Shown here: positions 15,121 to 60,716 of the stretch, piece by piece
Layout: each line of letters opens with the position of its first letter
Numbering within the stretch: position 1 is the first letter of the stretch
DNA from: a virus
Lineage: Duplodnaviria; Heunggongvirae; Uroviricota; Caudoviricetes
IMG/VR virus record: IMGVR_UViG_2595698618_000001
Span: 15,136 to 79,135 of that record
Reading direction: 5' to 3' (one strand)
Length of the DNA: 64,000 bases
Notes under the pieces: model-generated
What the model was told of the DNA's origin: nothing
Seen by the model: the letters and a program-made list of their open reading frames with translations, nothing else
Databases searched by the model: none
Program-made: the position numbers and the translations under genes

Positions 15121-15657
15121 ATGGGACTGCTAAACTCAGAAAACGATTTGCTGGAATGGATTCGCCGCACTTTCATCCCTCCTCTTGGGATGTTAGTCTC
15201 CGCGTATAACGAATCCACCGGCTCGAAACTCTACGTACAAGGACCCACGACAGACAACCAGTTCGTCGGTCGAGTGAAAATGGGCGAGGAAGACTTCGAG
15301 GCCGAACTCGAAGAAATGGGATTCGAACGAAATCCCCTCGCTTCACTCAAACACTTAATCGGAACTCGTGAGAAGGAAGAAGGTTCCTTCCGCTGGCTCG
15401 CACCAGAAGATTCCGAATACCGAAAGGATTACCAACTTCACGTAATTCTATACGACGGTTCCGTAATTCCTGACGCTGAAACTGGTGAGACGTATGTATA
15501 CGCTCATTGGGAGTACCGTTGGGACGTGGCTCCGATGAAGCATTATCGCGCTGTTAACTGGAAACCTGTTCAGGGTGTCCAGATGATGCAGACAATGCTT
15601 ACGGAGAATGGTATTGACTACGATTATCAACTGCCTCCAACTAAGGATAATGAGTAA
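15121..15657 (+). CDS. Hypothetical protein
   Basis: 178-aa ORF with own promoter (~15065). Confidence 0.6.
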   Translation: MGLLNSENDLLEWIRRTFIPPLGMLVSAYNESTGSKLYVQGPTTDNQFVGRVKMGEEDFEAELEEMGFERNPLASLKHLIGTREKEEGSFRWLAPEDSEYRKDYQLHVILYDGSVIPDAETGETYVYAHWEYRWDVAPMKHYRAVNWKPVQGVQMMQTMLTENGIDYDYQLPPTKDNE

Positions 15658-30481: not shown

Positions 30482-30565
30482 TGCACCCGCTTGGAATCGA
30501 ACCAAGAAAGCCCCTACGGGCAAGGCCCCTCAAGCCTATGGGTTTCACCAGTTCCCTACAGATGC
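30482..30565 (-). tRNA. trnL: tRNA-Leu(GAG)
   Basis: aggc-ttGAGgg-gcct; long V arm. Confidence 0.8.
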
Positions 30566-30572
30566 GCGTAAT

Positions 30573-30650
30573 TCAGCAAAGTTGAGAGTGAGGTTGGTTT
30601 CTGAATCCCAAGATTTTGGTGGAATTGAAGTATCTCACTCCCTCGGCTGA
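30573..30650 (-). ncRNA. Y-RNA-like RNA #1 (78 nt) between Leu tRNAs
   Basis: UCAGC[C]GAGG/CUUUGCUGA bulged-C helix plus GAGUGAG/CUCACUC; shares 20/22 nt with the RNA upstream of TROVE. Confidence 0.65.
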
Positions 30651-30734
30651 TGAGCCGGGCAGGATTCGAACCTGCAAAGCACTAAAGCGCGAGGTCCTAA
30701 GCCTCGTGAGTTTAACCATTTCTCGTACCGACTC
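30651..30734 (-). tRNA. trnL: tRNA-Leu(TAG)
   Basis: cgagg-ctTAGga-cctcg; long V arm. Confidence 0.9.
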
Positions 30735-47141: not shown

Positions 47142-48965
47142 TTATCCCTGAATGTCTTGCTTGGAGGCGACTTTGACCTTCATTGCGAGAGGCGTGTTGC
47201 CCTTCTTGCGAATGGTATTCGTTCGGAAGATGCCTTCCTCGGTGAGTTTCCGAATGGCACTCTCAATCTGACGCTCGGCTTCGTGTGGCGTCTCAATCCA
47301 GTCGTCAGGACCGTAGTGCCACACTTCGTGGTCGGGGTCGAAGACCGTACCGGAAATGTCAGCACCCTCGCCGGACTCTCCGATGGGCACAAGGCCGAGC
47401 ATTTCCTTCAGGCCGGGTTCGTGTTCGTCCAAGCCGTCGATACGCTCTCCGTCCAGCGTCTCCTCTAAGGCGGCACGCACGGCTTCCTCGTAAGGCTCCA
47501 AGTCAACATCCTCGAACTCGCCAGCCGAACTTCCGTCGAGTGTGACCTGACCACCTTCGTTCTGACTCGTATCGACCGAAGACTCGCTCATAAAGTCAGA
47601 TGCCTTTGGCTCAAGTTCCTCGTTGATGCGGCGTGCAGTCTCCACGAAGTCTTCTCCGGTGATAGGGTCGGTGCAACCCTCGAAGAAGTCCTTGAAGTCG
47701 TCGTCAATCTCAAACTTTCCGAGAGCCTGCCAGCCCTTAAATTCGTAGAGGTGTTCGCCGTTCTCACCAGCCCGCTCGTGCTTCTGAACCAGATAATTCT
47801 GAATCAGGTCTGCAAGCATTTGCTCAATCTGGTGACGCTTCACGAAGGAGGCATTCGTCTTGCGAAGATGCTCCTGAATGTCGTTGATGCTGGAGAGATT
47901 TCGCGTACCACCAGTCTGCTCAATGGCGACACAGATGGCCTTCTTCTTTCTATCGAGTTGGTGAGTCGTTGCCATTAGAATGTCTCGGGTTGCAAGAATG
48001 TTGGCGAGGTCTTGCGGTTCTGCAATGTACGCCTCTTTCACGCCCTCGTTAGACTCCTTGATGGCTTTCTTGTCACGACTCTTGTAGTTGAGCAGAGCCG
48101 AGGACCGGACAAGGTTTGCGACCATAGCGCCGACACGGTTCGTCTCGCTTCTATCGGTGTCGAAGATAGGCTTCGCGTACTTCACGAAGTCCCGACCGCC
48201 GAACTGTTCCTCACCGGCAGGAATCTTCACCCAAGCATCTTTGGGCATCTCTCGAATGTGGTCTTTGAGAGCCTTGTGTCCATCCTCAAAGTCGAACATA
48301 TACTCGTGGTCGCTATCGCCAAAGGCAATCATCGAGTGGTCCCACTTCGTAGCGAGAACACCCTCGTTCTTGTCCTTGGACTCGTGGACCGGAACTTTCA
48401 GGAGGCGGTCCCACATTTCGAAGTCAGGTTCGTATTGTGCATACAGGAACCAGTAGGGGATTGCACTCCGCTGAATCTCGTCCACATCTCTGTCTGCACC
48501 TCGCCCGTCTCCTGTGACTTTGTAGGTGAACTCCTCGTCGTCACCGTGCAGGCTCTTGAGAATCTCGATAATCTTCTCACCGGGCTTCTGCAACTCGTCA
48601 AGACTCGCAATCCACGCATCCTCCCACGTATCGTCGTAGATGATGGCGGTATCGGAACCGCTGGTCGCCTGATAGAGATAGCCATCAGGGAACAAGTCTT
48701 CGACCTGATGCTGAAGGTGAGTCTTCCCGCTCCCGGCAGTTCCGATTAGGACACCTGAAATAAAGTGAGACGAATCTTCCATAAATCCGCTCACGTAACC
48801 AAGTGTCGTTAGCAAGAACTGCTCCTCATTTTTGACAATGCGAGAGCGCCCATACTTCACGAGGTCGATGGCAACGTTATCGTGGAGGTCATAATCGTAA
48901 ATTAATTCCTCCTCGGGTACACCATCGGACTCGTCTTGAGCCGTATCGCTAAAATTGAATCCCAT
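47142..48965 (-). CDS. P-loop AAA+-like ATPase, putative replicative helicase
   Basis: Walker A GTAGSGKT; Walker B IASLDE; 607 aa with winged-helix-like C-terminus. Confidence 0.7.
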   Translation of the reverse strand: MGFNFSDTAQDESDGVPEEELIYDYDLHDNVAIDLVKYGRSRIVKNEEQFLLTTLGYVSGFMEDSSHFISGVLIGTAGSGKTHLQHQVEDLFPDGYLYQATSGSDTAIIYDDTWEDAWIASLDELQKPGEKIIEILKSLHGDDEEFTYKVTGDGRGADRDVDEIQRSAIPYWFLYAQYEPDFEMWDRLLKVPVHESKDKNEGVLATKWDHSMIAFGDSDHEYMFDFEDGHKALKDHIREMPKDAWVKIPAGEEQFGGRDFVKYAKPIFDTDRSETNRVGAMVANLVRSSALLNYKSRDKKAIKESNEGVKEAYIAEPQDLANILATRDILMATTHQLDRKKKAICVAIEQTGGTRNLSSINDIQEHLRKTNASFVKRHQIEQMLADLIQNYLVQKHERAGENGEHLYEFKGWQALGKFEIDDDFKDFFEGCTDPITGEDFVETARRINEELEPKASDFMSESSVDTSQNEGGQVTLDGSSAGEFEDVDLEPYEEAVRAALEETLDGERIDGLDEHEPGLKEMLGLVPIGESGEGADISGTVFDPDHEVWHYGPDDWIETPHEAERQIESAIRKLTEEGIFRTNTIRKKGNTPLAMKVKVASKQDIQG

Positions 48966-49407
48966 TGTTACGTCTGTAATTGGTGTCCTCTATACTTAAA
49001 CCTTTCGTTCGTACTCGTAGTCGATGCGAGACGGAATTTGCGAAACGTCGAACTGCCCCTTCCCGTGAACGTGAAACACCTGCAACGAAGTATCCAACGA
49101 AAGAATCACGTTAAACTCGTCCTTCTTTTGAATGATTTGCAATTCTCCCGGTAATTCCGTGCCGTCTCCGTACATATCAAGGTAGAAGAATACCCATCCG
49201 AGGCAATCTCCGAAGTTGTTATACTCGCGTGACTTTAGTTCAAAGTGAGGGTTGTTCAGCCACTCGGGGTTGTAGTCTACGTTCACCATAGAGGGCGTCA
49301 CGGTCGCCGTAACGTCGCCTTTCCGAAAGCGAGGCCAACGACCTTGCTCGACTGTAACTCCGCTCACAGCGTCAACACGCGCCCTCTGAGCAACTCGGTG
49401 AAAGTTA

Positions 49408-50289
49408 TCAGCGAACGATAGCGTTCTTGATGAAGTCATTAATCATCTCCGTATTCATCTCTCCATCGAGGTGATTCTCAGGCGTTAGTTCACGGTCCAA
49501 CTCAGCCTCGATGAAGTCCTCGAACGGATTACCGGCGTGGTCGTAAGCCTCCGCATTACGCTTCTTCTCGATGAACGACTGGAGCAACTCATACTCGTCT
49601 TCACCAAGGCCAAGCGACTCCGCATTCTCAGAGGCGAACTTCGGGAAGTCCATCGTCGGCATCTCGTGAGTCGTGCGAATATGCTTCGCGTGAAGGATAG
49701 CACGCATAATGTAGAGGTTACGCTTGACCGTCTGCTTCAAGTTACCAGCCTCGTACTCGTCCGACTCTTTTGGAATATCCCCAATCCCCGTATGCCAATA
49801 ATGGTCATCCTCGTTTTCAATTGGGTAACGCTCGCCCTCCGTGTCGTAGATACACGGCTTTAGGTACTTCATATAGTTCGACTCAGCCATCGAACGATAG
49901 TGATAGTAGAGCGCGATTGGCTTGAAGTTTGCATTCGCCATCTCACGAAGTTCGTCAAGAGTCCCGATAAACTCAGGATTCTCGAAGTAAGTGACTGGCG
50001 AATTGAGGAACTCAAGAGTCGTCGGATTCGAGTCGTTGAGCAATTCCCCGAACTTCTTAATATTCCAGCATTGGAAGTCGATTTCGCCTCGCTTGATAGT
50101 TAGCGTATCCTCGTAGCCACCGATTGTGGCATAGTCGCTCGCATCTTGAGCGAAAATGAGGAAAGCGTCGTAGTCCGACTCGGGGGAGTCGAGATTCATC
50201 ATATGCGAACCGAAAGAGCGACACGAAATAGCGTGAATGCCCTCGCTCTTTTCGATTTCGTAAATCGTGTTTCTAATTTCTTCTCTCAT
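49408..50289 (-). CDS. RlaP-like (Pol-beta family) predicted nucleotidyltransferase
   Basis: FGSHMMNLDSPESDYD; WNIKKFGELL..SNPT.LEFL.SP; KRNLYIMR. Confidence 0.8.
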   Translation of the reverse strand: MREEIRNTIYEIEKSEGIHAISCRSFGSHMMNLDSPESDYDAFLIFAQDASDYATIGGYEDTLTIKRGEIDFQCWNIKKFGELLNDSNPTTLEFLNSPVTYFENPEFIGTLDELREMANANFKPIALYYHYRSMAESNYMKYLKPCIYDTEGERYPIENEDDHYWHTGIGDIPKESDEYEAGNLKQTVKRNLYIMRAILHAKHIRTTHEMPTMDFPKFASENAESLGLGEDEYELLQSFIEKKRNAEAYDHAGNPFEDFIEAELDRELTPENHLDGEMNTEMINDFIKNAIVR

Positions 50290-50613: not shown

Positions 50614-50934
50614 TCATTTGTGGCTAATTGTTTTGTAGTATTTTTCGATACTTAGTTGGGCTTCTGAAACGTCGTTGTCGTTGTAGAAGTCACAGATTTC
50701 TATCCAGTCGTTTTTCGCGTGGAAGTTTCTGTGGTATCGTGAGCGAAGTAAAAGAAGGTTCGCCGGGCGATTATCCCACGGTATTGTATTCCTGTGGTGA
50801 ACGTTCCATACACGTCCATTGAATACGTCGTGTGGGTCTTCTTCGACACAGGCGAGTAGTCGATGTAGTTTGACAGAATCTTCTCCGTCTGTGACTACTT
50901 CGTATCCGCCTACTGTCTTGAAGTTGATGCCCAT
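50614..50934 (-). CDS. HNH endonuclease (HNH_3-like)
   Basis: KLHRLLA...VHHRN..PWDNRPANL...H. Confidence 0.8.
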   Translation of the reverse strand: MGINFKTVGGYEVVTDGEDSVKLHRLLACVEEDPHDVFNGRVWNVHHRNTIPWDNRPANLLLLRSRYHRNFHAKNDWIEICDFYNDNDVSEAQLSIEKYYKTISHK

Positions 50935-52463
50935 TACCGCGCCGGTTCTACTGATTCAATCTCTTGAATCATCCCATCGACGTTCTCGACCTTCTCGATG
51001 AAGTCGAGGACCTGTTCCGACCAGCCGCTCATATTGTAAACGTCGTGAGCGCCTTCTGGTGTTACGAGGTCGCCGTAGTGTTGTAGGTCGATGAGGTATA
51101 GGCTTGCGTTAGGGTTCTCCGCCTTATACGCATCCCATTCGTCCTTGAAGGACGTGTTGGTTCTCCAAGTGGAGTCGTTCCAGAGTTGCATATCGGTGAA
51201 CACGATGATACGCTCGTAAGAGCGGTCTTCGTTGCGTAGTCCACGGAGGACTTTCCAACCGTTAGTCGAGCCACCGACTCCGACACTCTGCATCTTCTCC
51301 GCGTTGGTGACGAGAGGGTTTCTCGGGTCGGCGTTAATTTCAGCGAAGTCGCTTGCGAAAACGCCAACATCAGATTGCCGTTCGAGCATCATTGCACCGA
51401 ACAGCGTTGCAATCTCCATACATTGCAGTTCCGAGTCTCCCGATACAGAAGACCGCATCGAACCACTCACGTCTACTGCGGTGAACGTATTCTCGAACAC
51501 GTCGGGTAGGTTCTCCGTAGCGACTTCCATCGCATTTTCGAGGAACTCCAGCGCGTTTTTATCGTTAGGCGTGTCTCTGCTCTGCTTGACAGCCTTGTAC
51601 GCTTGGTAGAACCGGAATGGGTACATCTGACTGTTTCGAACCCATTCGTCGGTTACGTCACCAAAGATTTCCTCACCGGAGAGTCCGGCGTCGAGCATAT
51701 TGCGAACGTTGCGAACCCGTGCGAAGATAGGCATCGAGTAGCCATCCTCATTTTCTTCGAGTTGTTCGCGCCAAACCTCAGCCTGACTCCGGCCCTCTTT
51801 ACCGGCTTCAGACATTTCGTTCTCCCACGTATCGGACTGCTTGAGCGGGTCTACGTCAGGATGGGAGTCCAGTTCTCCGAGAGCAATCTGCTCAAAAATT
51901 GCATCTCGCTCCTCATCCCGAGGACGCGGGTGAACGAGGTTCAGCAAGTCGCGGTACTGCCATTCTCTCGAAGGGCGGTCCCACTTTGCAAACTGATACT
52001 CGTTGAAATTGTGGAGAGCATCCTCGATTCCTTTCTTCAGCGGATTCGGGATGGACTTGCCGTACAGGGAAACCTGCATCGCAAGAACTTCCAAGGGTTC
52101 ATCTGCACGCTGAATAACTCCCTCAGCATAACTACGAACGTAACCCTTGGTCCGGTCATCGTTGGCCGACAGTACGAGCAACAGTTGAGGGACTTGCCGA
52201 AGATTCTCAGACTGTCGCGCATACTTAGCCAACTTCAGGACAAATTCTGGATTTACATCCGCCACTCGGTCGAACTCAGTCCGAACGTCATCTAACGAAT
52301 CCTCAGCCGACTCGTAATAAGAGTCTTCGAGGAGGTTCGTCAGCACGTTCTTCGTGAGAGCAACTTCGGGCGAGTCAGGCGAATACGCTTCGCCACCCTC
52401 ATAGTTGTCCTTCTCAGTTCGTTCTGCGACTGTCTCTTTCGTGTCGTTGTAGTTGATTCCCAT
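50934..52463 (-). CDS. rsr: Ro60/TROVE-domain ribonucleoprotein with C-terminal vWA
   Basis: NYEGGEAY; PEFVLKLAKYARQ..NLR; YQFAKW; DLLNLVHP; MYPFRFYQAY; MIDAS DVSGSM; FTDMQ; SGWSE. Confidence 0.9.
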   Translation of the reverse strand: MGINYNDTKETVAERTEKDNYEGGEAYSPDSPEVALTKNVLTNLLEDSYYESAEDSLDDVRTEFDRVADVNPEFVLKLAKYARQSENLRQVPQLLLVLSANDDRTKGYVRSYAEGVIQRADEPLEVLAMQVSLYGKSIPNPLKKGIEDALHNFNEYQFAKWDRPSREWQYRDLLNLVHPRPRDEERDAIFEQIALGELDSHPDVDPLKQSDTWENEMSEAGKEGRSQAEVWREQLEENEDGYSMPIFARVRNVRNMLDAGLSGEEIFGDVTDEWVRNSQMYPFRFYQAYKAVKQSRDTPNDKNALEFLENAMEVATENLPDVFENTFTAVDVSGSMRSSVSGDSELQCMEIATLFGAMMLERQSDVGVFASDFAEINADPRNPLVTNAEKMQSVGVGGSTNGWKVLRGLRNEDRSYERIIVFTDMQLWNDSTWRTNTSFKDEWDAYKAENPNASLYLIDLQHYGDLVTPEGAHDVYNMSGWSEQVLDFIEKVENVDGMIQEIESVEPAR

Positions 52464-52475
52464 TTTGTATCACCA

Positions 52476-52561
52476 CGGTTGAAATTGGAAGTCGGGCCAC
52501 CATTTTAGGCAGGTGACAAAGCCCAATTTTCAATATTGAAGTATCCGACTCCCTCGCACCG
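52476..52561 (-). ncRNA. Y-RNA-like RNA #2, ends 13 nt upstream of the TROVE start codon
   Basis: CGGU-G[C]GAG/UUUC-A-ACCG bulged-C helix; GGAGUCGG/CCGACUUCC; AUACUUCAAU; promoter at ~52590-52608. Confidence 0.7.
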
Positions 52562-52735
52562 GGTTAACGGCATACTATCATAGGGACTCGGACTACTTAA
52601 ACCTTTCGGTTTTCGTGGAAGTAGAGCCGGTCATACCGAGACGAATAACACACCTTCTCCGCATCAGCCGTGTGAAACGTCCCTGCACTCCCAAGATTCA
52701 CCTTCCTCGTGTACGGGTCGCCACAAATAGAACAA

Positions 52736-55304: not shown

Positions 55305-55436
55305 TAGCCCCGGTAGGATTCGAACCTACAATCTCTGCTTCCAGATAGCGAAGTAACGCTTCCAATCGCTCCACAAAACGTGGCTGAAATCTCAGAAGCG
55401 ACGTAATAGCGCCTTGAACCATTCGGCCACGGGGCT
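55305..55436 (-). tRNA. tRNA-Gln(CTG)-like gene with 58-nt insertion in the anticodon stem (55350..55407)
   Basis: A1:U72 acceptor AGCCCCG/CGGGGCT; removing the insertion gives ctgct-atCTGga-agcag. Confidence 0.6.
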
Positions 55437-56168
55437 TCGTAAACGTCGGCTAAATTTGAGAACGCGGTTGTGGATTCATAGTCTTGAAGTATGCGTTCTC
55501 GTCGTCCGACAATACACTATTAGGACCCCTACTACTTAAAGGTTTCGAATTTCATCAGCGACTTCGGCGCGAATATCTCTCGATGGAAGCGAACCAAGAG
55601 CAAACGCTATATACAGATGCTCCCGAAACCACTTCTTCGCAAATTCTCCCTGTTCGTCAAAATAAAACGCACTACCACGATACATTTCTTCAGCAATCTG
55701 GTCGAGTAAACGCGGAATCGTATCATCGACAAACGTTTCGTGCGTCTTCGACTCATTCGGACCCGAAAAATGATACCAACTCCCACCAAGGTCCACACCA
55801 CCATAGCGAGAATCATCATTCATCGGGTGAGTGCAGGTAGCGACTAAGTACCCCGCTTCTTCCTCGATAGTAATCCGCAACGACGCCTCACTATAATACG
55901 AAATGTAAAACGTGTATTCAACCATTTAATTCCTCATCTAAAGCGGCGAGCGTCTTCCACAACATCGGAAGTGTTTCATACGACGAATAGCCAAGGCTCT
56001 CCAACGCCGACTGCACACCATTCGTGTGAATGTATCCATCACCAATACAATGATAAATGCAAACCATTGTTTCAACCTTTTCTCGGTGGGATAATTCTCG
56101 ATTCCTTGCCTCTATCGCGTCGGCACTTGTTGTTGAGACTTTGACACCGGGGAAGTCTCCATAGGTTG

Positions 56169-56589: not shown

Positions 56590-57981
56590 CTATTCTGCCT
56601 TGATGGAGAGGAACGGCTTGACTCTATCGACCACTTCGACCGATTCTCCGAGCGCGGCTTCGATTTGTTCAGCAGGCTTGTACGCACCGGGAATCTCGTC
56701 CATCGGCTTCTTCGACATATACACGTCGCCAATCTGTTCCTCGAAATCGTCAGCGTCGAACTTGTCGTGAGCCGCAGTACGCGACATAGCCCGACCAGCA
56801 CCGTGTGCAGACGAGTTATTCCACGAGTCCTTCCCACGCCCTCGGCAGAGGAGCGTTCCGTAAGACATATTCAGAGGCACGACAAGGCGCTCTCCATCGT
56901 GGGCACGGCACGCGCCCTTACGCACAGTCGCGTCCTGAAAGTCGATGTAGTTGTGGACGGACTCAACCTCATCCTCCCACCAGACGGGGACTTCCTCGTT
57001 AGCCTCGCCATCTTCGCCCAAGATAGAACGAACTGCATCGAGGACTGCGACAGCCATCTGCTTGCGCGAGACGCTGGCGTAAGTCTGAGCAAACACCATA
57101 TCCTTGATGTAGCCGTGCGCTTCCTCTCCTTCGAGGTAGTCCAAGTCCGTGTTGCGACCGGATTCAGCGTTCTTCGTCTCCTGAATGAATTGAGACAGTT
57201 CGTTGAACTTCTCCTGAATTGCCTCTCCCTCGAAGTCTGCGCGAATCTTATCCGACTTCGGCTTCCAGTCTTCACCGAGATATGGCTCGATGGAATCAGG
57301 AATCTCCGTCTCAAGCGCACGCTCGTTCATCCTATCGGTGGCTACATCCTGCCAATACTGGGCAATCTGAGCGCCGATGCCACGAGAGCCGGAGTGAATA
57401 ATCACCCAAACGTCGCCCGTCTGCTCCGAGCGACCAAACTCGATGAAGTGGTTGCCTCCACCGAGTGTACCGACGCTGTTGATAGCGCGGCCTTGGTCGT
57501 ACCCTACGCGCTTGCACACGTTCTTGAAGTAGTCGAGGCCGTACACGTCTTCGGGGTCTTCCTCGATAGCGAACTGCGTCTGCTCCGTGAACTCGTCCAG
57601 TTTGTAGACACACTCACGCCACGGGAAGTCGTTGCCCATATGGAAGCCGTTTCTTCCGTGAACGTCGAATCCCATTGGAATACGCTCGCGCACAGCAGAG
57701 TCGAGTTCCTCAAGCGAATCGAAGTCAACGTCCCCGAGTTTGATAGCGAACATTCCGCAACCAATGTCCACGCCAATCGTGTTTGGAACAATCCGATTCT
57801 TGACAGGCATCGTGAAACCGATAACCGCTCCTGCTCCCCAATGGGTGTCAGGCATAATCGCAACGTCGCCCTCACCCTCGAACGCAGGGTGGTCCACCAT
57901 CTCCTGAATCTGGTCTTTAGCCTCCGACTCGACGGAATCAATCTTTACGTCAGCCGTGTTGTAATCGCCTTCAATCTTCAT
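56590..57981 (-). CDS. rtcB: RtcB 3'-phosphate/5'-OH RNA ligase
   Basis: MPDTH.G.G; IGVDIGCGM; GTLGGGNHFIE; HSGSRG; HNY; RKGA; HGAGRAMSR; DEIPGAYKP; start MKIEG at 57981. Confidence 0.97.
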   Translation of the reverse strand: MKIEGDYNTADVKIDSVESEAKDQIQEMVDHPAFEGEGDVAIMPDTHWGAGAVIGFTMPVKNRIVPNTIGVDIGCGMFAIKLGDVDFDSLEELDSAVRERIPMGFDVHGRNGFHMGNDFPWRECVYKLDEFTEQTQFAIEEDPEDVYGLDYFKNVCKRVGYDQGRAINSVGTLGGGNHFIEFGRSEQTGDVWVIIHSGSRGIGAQIAQYWQDVATDRMNERALETEIPDSIEPYLGEDWKPKSDKIRADFEGEAIQEKFNELSQFIQETKNAESGRNTDLDYLEGEEAHGYIKDMVFAQTYASVSRKQMAVAVLDAVRSILGEDGEANEEVPVWWEDEVESVHNYIDFQDATVRKGACRAHDGERLVVPLNMSYGTLLCRGRGKDSWNNSSAHGAGRAMSRTAAHDKFDADDFEEQIGDVYMSKKPMDEIPGAYKPAEQIEAALGESVEVVDRVKPFLSIKAE

Positions 57982-58099
57982 ACTCGAAAGAAGGGGCCAC
58001 AACGTTATAAACGTTGCGGTTAAGCCGAACTCAATCGGAACCAACGGGTTCCGACAGTAACGCTACTCGTTACTGCTAACCGGCGGTTGAGGTTGAAAA

Positions 58100-58606: not shown

Positions 58607-59257
58607 TTATAGAAGTTGCTCCAACTCGTCGTCGCTGATTGTACGCAAGTCAGGGAACTTCTCCACTAATTCTTCGGCAGGATTCCACACAGCGGGGTGG
58701 CCGAGAATTGGCTTACTTGCGACATAATCCGACATATGAAGAATCTGCTCCCAATCAGTTTCAGGATTCTTGCCTTCAGCCCACGCTCCGTTATGTGCGT
58801 GAATTGCTCCATAGACTTGCCTCGGCGCTCCACCAAGGACACGAGCCACGTCACTCCCGATAACGTCGTGGTTCTGCACAGTATGCTCATTCCTCTCTGA
58901 AGGCCAACCGTATTTAAGCATATCGTGAATTAGCGCCGCACTCTTACCAGCCTCTCGGTCGAACTCTGTGATAAGCCCTTGCTCTAAGTATGAACGACTT
59001 AGGACGAGATACGTGATGAAGACACGCTTCGTGTGGAGCCAATTGCCGAACTGCCCGGTTTCGTCTTTAGCGTGATACTTGCCCGTTGAAGAAGATGGTC
59101 GATTCCAGAAATGGTCAGGACACCCCTTCAAGAACGTCTGTTCTGTAACTTCTTGTAATTCCGGGTCAAGAATAGTGCCAACTTCGGGGAGTAGTCGGTA
59201 CAACTCCTCCTCTGACAAGTTATTCTTCACTCGGTTGATTCTCTCTACTTTCTCCAT
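58607..59257 (-). CDS. HD-domain phosphohydrolase
   Basis: SSTGKYH...HTKRV; AALIHDMLKYG; H...G; IHAHNGAW; LHMSDY. Confidence 0.8.
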   Translation of the reverse strand: MEKVERINRVKNNLSEEELYRLLPEVGTILDPELQEVTEQTFLKGCPDHFWNRPSSSTGKYHAKDETGQFGNWLHTKRVFITYLVLSRSYLEQGLITEFDREAGKSAALIHDMLKYGWPSERNEHTVQNHDVIGSDVARVLGGAPRQVYGAIHAHNGAWAEGKNPETDWEQILHMSDYVASKPILGHPAVWNPAEELVEKFPDLRTISDDELEQLL

Positions 59258-60615: not shown

Positions 60616-60716
60616 AACTACGAGGGAGCCACCCAAGGAAGGACTCGAACCTTCATTCTTTAGAGTTACAGTCTAATGTTGTACCTTGAAGTAACGGTCA
60701 GCCTTCGTCTCGCGTT
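60616..60716 (-). ncRNA. YrlA-like Y RNA candidate #3 with tRNA-like domain
   Basis: 5' stem strand GCGAGACGAAGG; UUACUUCAA; arm UUAGA-cuGUAac-UCUAA; T-arm GAAGG-UUCGAGU-CCUUC; own promoter at ~60735-60755. Confidence 0.65.

Follow-up and report, generated by a model that had tools for sequence, protein, structure and literature searches.

The Ro60 gene and three related RNA elements

The window analysed here is a 64-kb stretch (64,000 nucleotides, nt) inside the 143,855-bp virus record IMGVR_UViG_2595698618_000001 (positions 15,136–79,135), and all elements are numbered in window coordinates. The minus strand of the window carries a gene for a Ro60-type protein of 509 amino acids containing TROVE and Ro60 vWA domains (50934–52463). 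A Y-RNA-like element, E1, is located in the leader of this gene (52472–52564; identified by sequence, fold and the covariance models R1 and R2 described below), and two related elements are present on the same strand: E2 (30566–30650; sequence, fold and R2), which is 22 kb away from the TROVE gene, and E3 (55437–55510; scan, R1 and R2), which is 3 kb upstream of it. An earlier note on this DNA had proposed that a Y-RNA-like element adjoins the TROVE/Ro60 gene and has a covarying twin among the clustered tRNA genes. That proposal holds and extends further than the note had it, the third paralogue (E3) having been missed there.

In the TROVE protein, both Pfam domains scored above the cut-offs (TROVE, E 3e-22, 79.8 bits; vWA_Ro60, E 1e-7, 32.1 bits), and the closest solved structure is that of Ro60 of the Thermus phage phiLo (9KOP/9L5Y; E 1e-33 for 9KOP over residues 18–494). 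The MIDAS-like residues D331/S333/S335 are invariant in 34 relatives. Hundreds of relatives with 45–70% identity were found in hypersaline metagenomes and haloarchaeal genomes. A blastn search of the TROVE region against a phage collection yielded no match, and tblastn against this collection detected only distant TROVE genes of bacterial phages (~30% identical).

E1 lies between a TATA-like box for the E1 and TROVE transcript (TTTAAGTA; 52601–52594, minus strand) and the TROVE ATG at 52463, as had been stated previously, with the basal stem ending at 52472, 9 nt from the ATG. The same TTTAAGTA box, followed by a similar downstream consensus, precedes E3, the related RNA E4 (see below), the tRNA-Leu/E2 unit and the gene at 47142–48965. 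Based on the usual spacing between TATA box and start site in archaea, transcription of E1 is predicted to start near 52571, about 7–9 nt ahead of the basal stem. Read 5′ to 3′ on the minus strand, E1 consists of the 5′ strand of the basal stem (52564–52558), the loop bases GC (52557–52556), GAG (52555–52553), the 5′ strand of stem 2 (GGAGUCGG; 52552–52545), the loop motif AUACUUCAA (52544–52536), an apical hairpin GUCACC...GGUGGC (52517–52496), the 3′ strand of stem 2 (CCGACUUC; 52495–52488), a CAA bulge (52487–52485), UUU (52484–52482) and the 3′ strand of the basal stem (52479–52472). This Y-type fold is the minimum-energy structure of the predicted transcript (−32.6 kcal/mol). A Shine–Dalgarno-like GGUGAU (52469–52474, minus strand), which presumably fits the haloarchaeal anti-Shine–Dalgarno sequence, is located 6 nt ahead of the ATG, and its first three bases are inside the 3′ strand of the basal stem. 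The gap between E1 and the ATG has no room for a separate promoter and contains no T-run terminator.

A switch or pseudoknot formed by UUGAAAAUUGG and CCAAUUUCAA had also been proposed. The pairing is present in E1, but the enforced fold is 5–8 kcal/mol above the Y-type fold in the predicted transcript, and the pairing is not conserved, being absent from E2, E3 and the virus-like contig L081, the closest relative. It was thus rejected. A separate complementarity was noted on the minus strand between the stretch from the TATA box onward (AAGUAGUCCGAGUCCCU; 52582–52598) and the 5′ strand of E1 (AGGGAGUCGGAUACUU; 52539–52554): the two are nearly complementary, and in a 137-nt fold part of the promoter region (~52598–52582) pairs with the 5′ strand of E1. 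Such pairing would compete with the Y-type fold if transcription began further upstream than predicted. The stretch is probably upstream of the transcription start, and the complementarity is partly due to the promoter consensus of the virus.

E2 exactly fills the 85-nt spacer between the genes for tRNA-Leu(tag) (30651–30734) and tRNA-Leu(gag) (30482–30565). On the minus strand, its basal stem is formed by UCAGC (30650–30646) and GCUGA (30577–30573), and is followed by the loop base C (30645), GAG (30644–30642), stem 2 (30641–30634 with 30592–30585) and the loop motif AUACUUCAA (30633–30625). The fold of E2 has a z-score of −3.5, none of 200 shuffled sequences folding as well. E3 was found by scanning for copies of the loop word that have a stem arm in front and the complement of this arm no more than 260 nt further on. 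Its minus-strand parts are a basal stem of GUCGG (55510–55506) and CCGAC (55449–55445), GAC in the place of GAG (55503–55501), stem 2 (GAGAACGC, 55500–55493, with GCGUUCUC, 55465–55458) and AUACUUCAA (55492–55484), and the 3′ strand contains an AAA bulge followed by UUU. A TATA-like TTTAAGTA for a unit comprising E3 and a tRNA is located ~30 nt ahead of E3 (55533–55540, minus strand), and the unit is predicted from this box to start at about the first base of the E3 basal stem. The tRNA of this unit directly follows E3 (55305–55436, minus strand) and is interrupted by a long insertion (Rfam tRNA, 45.7 bits over 132 nt). The gene for the RNA ligase RtcB is located 1.2 kb upstream of the interrupted tRNA, and such closeness of an RNA ligase, an interrupted tRNA and a Y-like RNA hints at a functional connection.

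Anatomy, covariation and distribution of the family

The 22-nt motif originally noticed is present on the minus strand in E1 (CGAGGGAGTCGGATACTTCAAT; 52535–52556) and E2 (CGAGGGAGTGAGATACTTCAAT; 30624–30645), the two copies matching at 20 of 22 positions. When the two variable bases were masked and as many as three mismatches tolerated, the motif (CGAGGGAGTNNGATACTTCAAT) occurs at just these two sites in the window and gave no match in 100 shuffles. A 21-nt version lacking the first C has no further copy in the whole 143,855-bp genome. The two bases that differ between the 5′ strands of E1 and E2 are compensated on the 3′ strand, since GGAGUCGG pairs with CCGACUUC in E1 and GGAGUGAG (30641–30634) pairs with CUCACUCU (30592–30585) in E2. 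The twin motif with its two compensated differences was thus borne out by the sequence, and the folds agree. A 20/22 match for some pair of sites in 64 kb is by itself close to chance level (roughly one pair by our own estimate). What makes the motif significant is therefore the compensation, together with the third paralogue and the ~90 homologues found elsewhere; given these, the observation is real and far beyond chance.

E1–E3 share a common layout. From 5′ to 3′, the basal stem is followed by one or two unpaired bases including a C, by GAG (GAC in E3), an 8-bp stem, AUACUUCAA and a variable hairpin, and on the 3′ side by the partner strand of the 8-bp stem, a CAA or AAA bulge, UUU (CUU in E2), one or two unpaired bases and the partner of the basal stem. 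The three 8-bp stems differ in sequence, yet each is complementary (GGAGUCGG/CCGACUUC, GGAGUGAG/CUCACUCU and GAGAACGC/GCGUUCUC). The 'bulged C' of the earlier note requires a correction at this point: a conserved C does adjoin a mini-helix of G.U, A-U and G.U pairs, but it is located in a 1 × 1 (E2) or 2 × 2 (E1, E3 and host elements) internal loop and is not a clean one-base bulge.

In total, 55 TROVE loci were collected from 185,579 species genomes, and all of them are haloarchaeal. A seed alignment of the three window elements and five host elements, with the structure specified by hand, was used to build the covariance model R1. In a search space of 527 kb, R1 detected 95 matches, of which those in the window were E1–E3 alone; E1 and E3 scored 65.6 and 47.9 bits, respectively, both being in the seed. 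A host-only model, R2, was built from 22 host sequences and used to scan the window with filters off. This model ranked E2 (22.8 bits, E 4e-4), E1 (18.3 bits, E 0.008) and E3 (17.2 bits, E 0.017) first, second and third in the window, the E-values being rough because of a shortened calibration. The fourth match of R2 (15271–15349, minus strand; 16.4 bits, E 0.029) is antisense within a plus-strand open reading frame (ORF; 15121–15657), lacks the loop motif and is probably a false positive.

Covariation is extensive among the 19 pairs of the two helices. In the seed alignment, 84% of cells pair, compared with 38–54% when the partner is slid, and 14 of the 19 pairs change on both sides. In an alignment of 81 distinct members, the corresponding values are 94.9 and 37–49%, with 17 of the 19 pairs changing on both sides; this alignment was fitted to the model, and its pairing is somewhat inflated. 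Even so, the low pairing in the slid controls and the variety of pair types, as many as six in one column, speak for a genuine structure. On the 5′ strand, the consensus of the family is GUCGAG, with G11 in 93 of 95 members, U12 in 81, C13 in 93, G14 in 85, an invariant A15 (95/95) and G17 in 74. The loop begins with (U/A)UNCUUC. The corresponding handles read GCCGAGG in E2, UGCGAGG in E1 and GACGACG in E3, so that the CGA core is kept and the next base is G or C, not A. One subclass of host members has U in column 17 together with G in column 188, and in these the conserved C can, by our reading of the alignment, pair instead. Read on the opposite strand, the invariant G.U pairs would become C-A mismatches, which identifies the strand of the TROVE and tRNA genes as the one that folds. 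A tRNA T-arm motif is present in 47 of the 81 distinct members (58%), and a few members contain a T-arm, a closed stem-loop and a D-arm in the order known from bacterial YrlA. In their place, E1–E3 have just the variable hairpin, with neither a T-arm nor a D-arm.

Outside the window, R1 matches are present upstream of the TROVE gene in 48 of the 55 haloarchaeal loci, with 1–5 copies per locus, on the strand of the gene and inside tRNA arrays. Most host copies are within 600 nt upstream of the TROVE start and a few are up to 2.3 kb away; most of the loci without an R1 match are themselves partial matches or lack upstream sequence. An R1 scan of five whole haloarchaeal genomes (~21 Mb; E up to 0.01; 150 first-look candidates scored per genome) gave 11 matches, all 11 in TROVE loci already collected. 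A simple word search placed this stem and loop word immediately ahead of TROVE in genomes that include Haloarchaeobius, Halogranum rubrum and Halovenus, in several cases with an internal tRNA T-arm. The family is thus conserved in sequence and structure, covaries and is associated exclusively with TROVE genes. It is common in haloarchaea and, as far as our literature search went, undescribed.

Eight virus-like contigs encode TROVE proteins closer to that of the virus (57–70% identity), and the comparison of TROVE upstream regions suggested by the earlier note revealed a leader element in five of them. In L081, L084, L087 and L088, an R1 match ends at the start codon, and in the leader of L085 a copy with CGAAGG was seen by eye. 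The stem of the L081 element (AAAGCGAC/GUCGCUUU) is wholly unlike that of E1 yet complementary, and its apical part contains a T-arm. As in E1, GGUGA(U) adjoins or overlaps the basal stem in L081, L084, L085 and L088. Because the element is present in five of the eight contigs and absent from three, the leader position is a conserved but dispensable trait of the viral lineage. The note would have been refuted by the absence of the motif upstream of homologous TROVE genes, and the outcome, with the element at 48 of the 55 haloarchaeal loci and in five of the eight contigs, is in its favour.

Host TROVE genes close off dense tRNA arrays, the 2.5 kb ahead of them containing as many as ~12 tRNA genes. 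In several loci from different genera (for example, L029, L034, L037, L038 and L042), elements and tRNAs have identical coordinates, which suggests a horizontally moving module, some copies of which are plasmid-borne. In addition, a bacterial-type viral contig (L022, 2130–2460) contains three tandem small stem-loops upstream of TROVE, each with GAUACUUCG after the stem and without a T-arm, forming a minimal Y-like array parallel to that of the virus.

Neighbouring genes and the related RNA E4

The strand of TROVE also encodes an HNH endonuclease, RlaP, RtcB, an HD-domain protein and an RNase H-like protein. The RlaP-family nucleotidyltransferase (RNA-repair associated; 49408–50289; Pfam RlaP, E 7e-36) is part of the TROVE gene string, and TROVE–RlaP synteny is kept in L081, L082, L083, L085 and L086. 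The RtcB RNA ligase (56590–58044, minus strand; Pfam RtcB, E 1e-64) is adjoined by the HD-domain protein (58607–59257; Pfam HD, E 2e-5). The HNH endonuclease ORF (50614–50934, minus strand) begins where the TROVE ORF ends, and other HNH or methylase insertions are present around TROVE in L082 and L085. Given these differing insertions, the neighbourhood seems to be a hotspot of homing elements. The virus has ~36 tRNA genes, and its main tRNA array (27.1–38.3 kb; ~35 tRNAs) holds only one copy of the family.

A protein of ~600 amino acids (47142–48965, minus strand) has counterparts in L081 and L085–L088 and is syntenic with TROVE and RlaP in all of the related virus-like contigs. It has no confident Pfam match, and a weak match to PF27228 was found in its relatives. 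This 607-amino-acid protein was considered as a second TROVE protein because it shares an N-terminal MG(I/F)N(Y/F)xDT (MGFNFSDT vs MGINYNDT), but BLASTP found no significant similarity and Pfam nothing, and the candidate was rejected. Another discarded candidate, ATACTTCGT with a complementary arm at ~49093, is inside an ORF (48996–49439), and the 3′ arm coincides with the next gene's promoter; we regard the complementarity as a coincidence.

A related but distinct YrlA-like RNA, E4, was identified by sequence at 60616–60716 (minus strand). It is preceded by a TTTAAGTA promoter of its own and contains GACGAAGG, which fits GNCGAAN0-1G exactly, together with UUACUUCAA, the UACUUCAA word and a T-arm (GAAGGUUCGAGUCCUUC). 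A partial tRNA match covers 60638–60693 (35.1 bits). The single-sequence fold of E4 is uninformative (z +1.07). Neither R1 nor R2 detected E4, because its handle is of a different type.

Relationship to Y RNAs and alternative explanations

Bacterial YrlA and YrlB RNAs contain the motif GNCGAAN0-1G near the 5′ end, which is related to the vertebrate GGUCCGA contacted by Ro60; only the 5′ strand is conserved, and it is this strand that Ro60 mainly touches (Chen et al. 2014, PMC4201824; bioRxiv 10.1101/312249). In the phiLo system, binding was demonstrated for RNAs with a CGAA motif in a bulge flanked by a 5′–3′ stem, two such RNAs being located upstream of the Ro60 gene (PMC12135203). The GUCGAG of the present family is close to both the bacterial and the vertebrate motif (PMC4201824), in agreement with the likeness to the Ro-binding helix that had been proposed. 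Like the bacterial and phage Y RNAs (YrlA/YrlB, RF02553; phiLo Yrl1/Yrl2), the members adjoin a Ro60/TROVE gene, often just upstream and on the same strand, and, as in the YrlA/YrlB type, a long stem joins the 5′ and 3′ ends and holds a CGA-core motif of the 5′ strand in a bulge or internal loop. In YrlA, the variable loop begins with YUAY (PMC4201824), which is matched by the U-U-A-C at the apical start of the family loop, and the fetched bacterial-phage loci have the same AUACUUCG word after the stem as the archaeal family. Further similarities to the YrlA and phage systems are the several copies per locus, the presence of RtcB nearby, the T-arm of many haloarchaeal members and, in some, the order of T-arm, stem-loop and D-arm. 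E1–E3 themselves resemble the small YrlB and phiLo Yrl2 RNAs, which lack a tRNA domain.

The family differs from bacterial Y RNAs in its occurrence in archaea and an archaeal virus, in having GUCGAG instead of GNCGAA, and in its setting within tRNA arrays, and PNPase, the known bacterial partner, is lacking in the five host genomes checked. Embedded in such arrays, the RNAs would have their ends made by tRNA-processing enzymes. Vertebrate Y RNAs (hY1, hY3–5 and Xenopus Y3; structure 1YVP, cited in PMC4201824) likewise have an end helix with an unpaired C followed by G.U and A-U pairs and a 3–4-nt bulge on the 3′ strand. The C of the present family is, however, in an internal loop instead of a single-base bulge, there is no oligo-U/La-type 3′ end, and archaeal promoters or tRNA operons replace Pol III transcription. 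The handle of E2 reads CAGC-C-GA-G-GGAGUGAG ... CUCACUCU-CAAC-UU-U-GCUG. That of hY1 reads GGUC-C-GA-A-GGUAGUGAG ... CUCACUACU-GCAC-UU-GACU, a parallel that serves as a lead only.

These comparisons suggest that E1–E3 are probably virus-encoded Y-RNA-like small RNAs, minimal members of the family without a tRNA-like domain, which partner the Ro60-type protein of the virus; that the members in the window are Ro60 ligands is also likely, at about the same level of confidence. Several observations weigh against this assignment. The window copies have CGAG or CGAC where bacterial and phiLo RNAs have CGAA, and E1–E3 lack the tRNA-like domain that defines YrlA. No copy reaches the threshold of any Rfam family, the YrlA model (RF02553, threshold 69 bits) giving 14.9–16.9 bits at most: the 14.9-bit match near E2 falls on the T-arm of the neighbouring tRNA, and the best host or viral relative scored 16.9 bits. 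At the gathering threshold, Rfam found tRNAs and no YrlA in the window, and in relaxed scans of the E1 and E2 regions (E up to 10) nothing beyond tRNAs and chance matches appeared, E1 having no YrlA match at all; 20 related loci yielded only tRNAs, and in targeted scans of L027 and L004 YrlA was far under threshold. The metazoan Y_RNA model (RF00019) gave no match at E up to 10 on E1 or the E2 region. The fold of E1 alone is not significantly stable (z −1.6), the R2 E-values of E1 (0.008) and E3 (0.017) are modest, and three of the virus-like contigs (L082, L083 and L086) have no element in the TROVE leader. Finally, no PNPase above the family cut-off was found in five TROVE-bearing haloarchaeal genomes, in which only S1/KH fragments match. 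The bacterial Ro60–Y RNA–PNPase machine therefore cannot serve as a model for the effector side.

The 5′ and 3′ ends of E1–E3 base-pair to form a long stem, whose 5′ strand carries (G)N-C-G-A-G at the small internal loop and the adjoining G.U/A-U/G.U mini-helix, facing the 3-nt bulge. By analogy with the vertebrate and bacterial complexes, this handle is a putative docking site for the virus's own Ro60/TROVE ring, and the apical part (AUACUUCAA and the variable hairpin) would gate the ring or recruit a partner. The RNAs would be made as parts of longer transcripts. E2 may be set free by RNase Z and RNase P acting at the tRNA-Leu genes on either side, and E3 would begin at its own promoter and end where RNase P cleaves the following tRNA. 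E1 would form the 5′ leader of the Ro60 mRNA and might be cut off as a free Y RNA, might stay in place as a cis-acting Ro60 site that occludes the ribosome-binding site (autoregulation), or might do both. Ro60 binding, processing, the autoregulatory role and the biological role are all inferred. The RNA-repair island (RtcB, RlaP and the HD protein), in a virus with ~36 tRNA genes, suggests a function in tRNA quality control or repair during infection. A broader proposal is that haloarchaea and their viruses have a genuine Ro60–Y RNA system in which the RNAs form part of tRNA operons and owe their maturation to RNase P and RNase Z, an effector other than PNPase, perhaps RtcB/RlaP, is used, and the viral leader copy doubles as an autoregulatory operator tying Ro60 translation to the occupancy of its own site. 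Taken as a whole, this proposal is tentative and, on present evidence, rather doubtful.

An alternative is that E1 and its viral counterparts are purely cis-acting leaders that control translation or stability of the Ro60 mRNA, for example by binding Ro60 or by a fold hiding the ribosome-binding site, and are never freed, E2 and E3 being decoys or remnants. This would account for the end of E1 9 nt ahead of the ATG, the pairing of the first Shine–Dalgarno-like GGUGAU bases in the basal stem, the recurrent order of element, GGUGA(U) and ATG in L081, L084, L085 and L088, and the missing space for a separate promoter or T-run terminator. However, E2 and E3 are outside mRNA leaders and are bounded by tRNA genes or a promoter in such a way as to release free RNAs, a tRNA gene stands between the last element and the TROVE start in most host loci, hosts have 2–5 copies per locus, and the TROVE leaders of L083 and L086 have no element. 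We consider a purely cis-acting role unlikely; a cis role of E1 is compatible with, and not opposed to, its being a Y-RNA-like partner of Ro60. Less probable again is that the elements act as structured spacers within tRNA operons, aiding processing or folding or punctuating transcription, that they are near TROVE via the arrays and that they do not bind Ro60. E2 fills its tRNA spacer exactly, E3 abuts a tRNA, host copies are in arrays of up to ~12 tRNA genes, and TROVE genes are present in 20 of 29 archaeal tRNA clusters (Morgado & Vicente 2019, PMC6333295), all of which such spacers would explain. They would not explain why the host copies are concentrated in the last 600 nt before TROVE instead of across the 2.5 kb of arrays, why whole-genome matches in the five genomes are at TROVE loci only, or why the main array of the virus has a single copy. 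Viral relatives without tRNA genes in the fetched 9 kb also keep the element in the TROVE leader, and the 5′ strand is close to the published Ro60-binding motif (PMC4201824).

The T-arm motif in 58% of members, together with weak partial matches of the Rfam tRNA and mascRNA models on host copies, could also indicate that the elements derive from tRNA genes by decay or rearrangement (as pseudo-tRNAs or permuted fragments) and are themselves functionless. E1–E3, however, have no T-arm or D-arm at all, the conserved parts of the family are the handle and the loop motif, which are not tRNA parts, and both helices exhibit extensive compensatory change, which decaying pseudogenes would not maintain; such an origin is very improbable. 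A chance likeness of two intergenic stretches can hardly be credited. The 20/22 pair by itself is expected about once per 64-kb window when all pairs are considered, but the compensation on the 3′ strand, the third paralogue, the ~90 homologues beside homologous genes and the ranking of the three sites first by R2 rule out chance similarity.

Work on Ro60–Y RNA particles has dealt with animals and bacteria. The archaeal literature searched yielded nothing but mentions of TROVE genes (in haloarchaeal tRNA clusters, Asgard viruses and Borgs), and in an incomplete full-text collection archaeal and archaeal-virus TROVE proteins are mentioned and no archaeal Y RNA is described. The archaeal tRNA clusters reported previously (PMC6333295) are the same loci as those collected here, with the TROVE gene listed and no Y-like RNA described, and a haloarchaeal virus with 36 tRNA genes cited in that study fits the present genome. 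The presence of the family ahead of nearly all haloarchaeal TROVE genes suggests that archaea, too, have the Ro60–Y RNA partnership described in animals and bacteria. An RNA family of ~90 members with a covariance model is now testable and would place Y RNAs in all three domains of life and in archaeal viruses. What makes it of interest is its occurrence in a further domain of life, its place within tRNA operons, the copy in the leader and the lack of the known effector. With a copy that abuts the ribosome-binding site, the Ro60 leader offers a convenient system in which to study autoregulation, and culturable carriers exist in Halogranum, Haloarcula and Halorubrum strains and in this virus. 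The position in tRNA arrays beside RtcB and RlaP suggests biogenesis by tRNA enzymes and a role in tRNA surveillance or repair in the conflict between virus and host. Because the haloarchaea checked lack PNPase, a new effector or another way of acting should come to light in this system.

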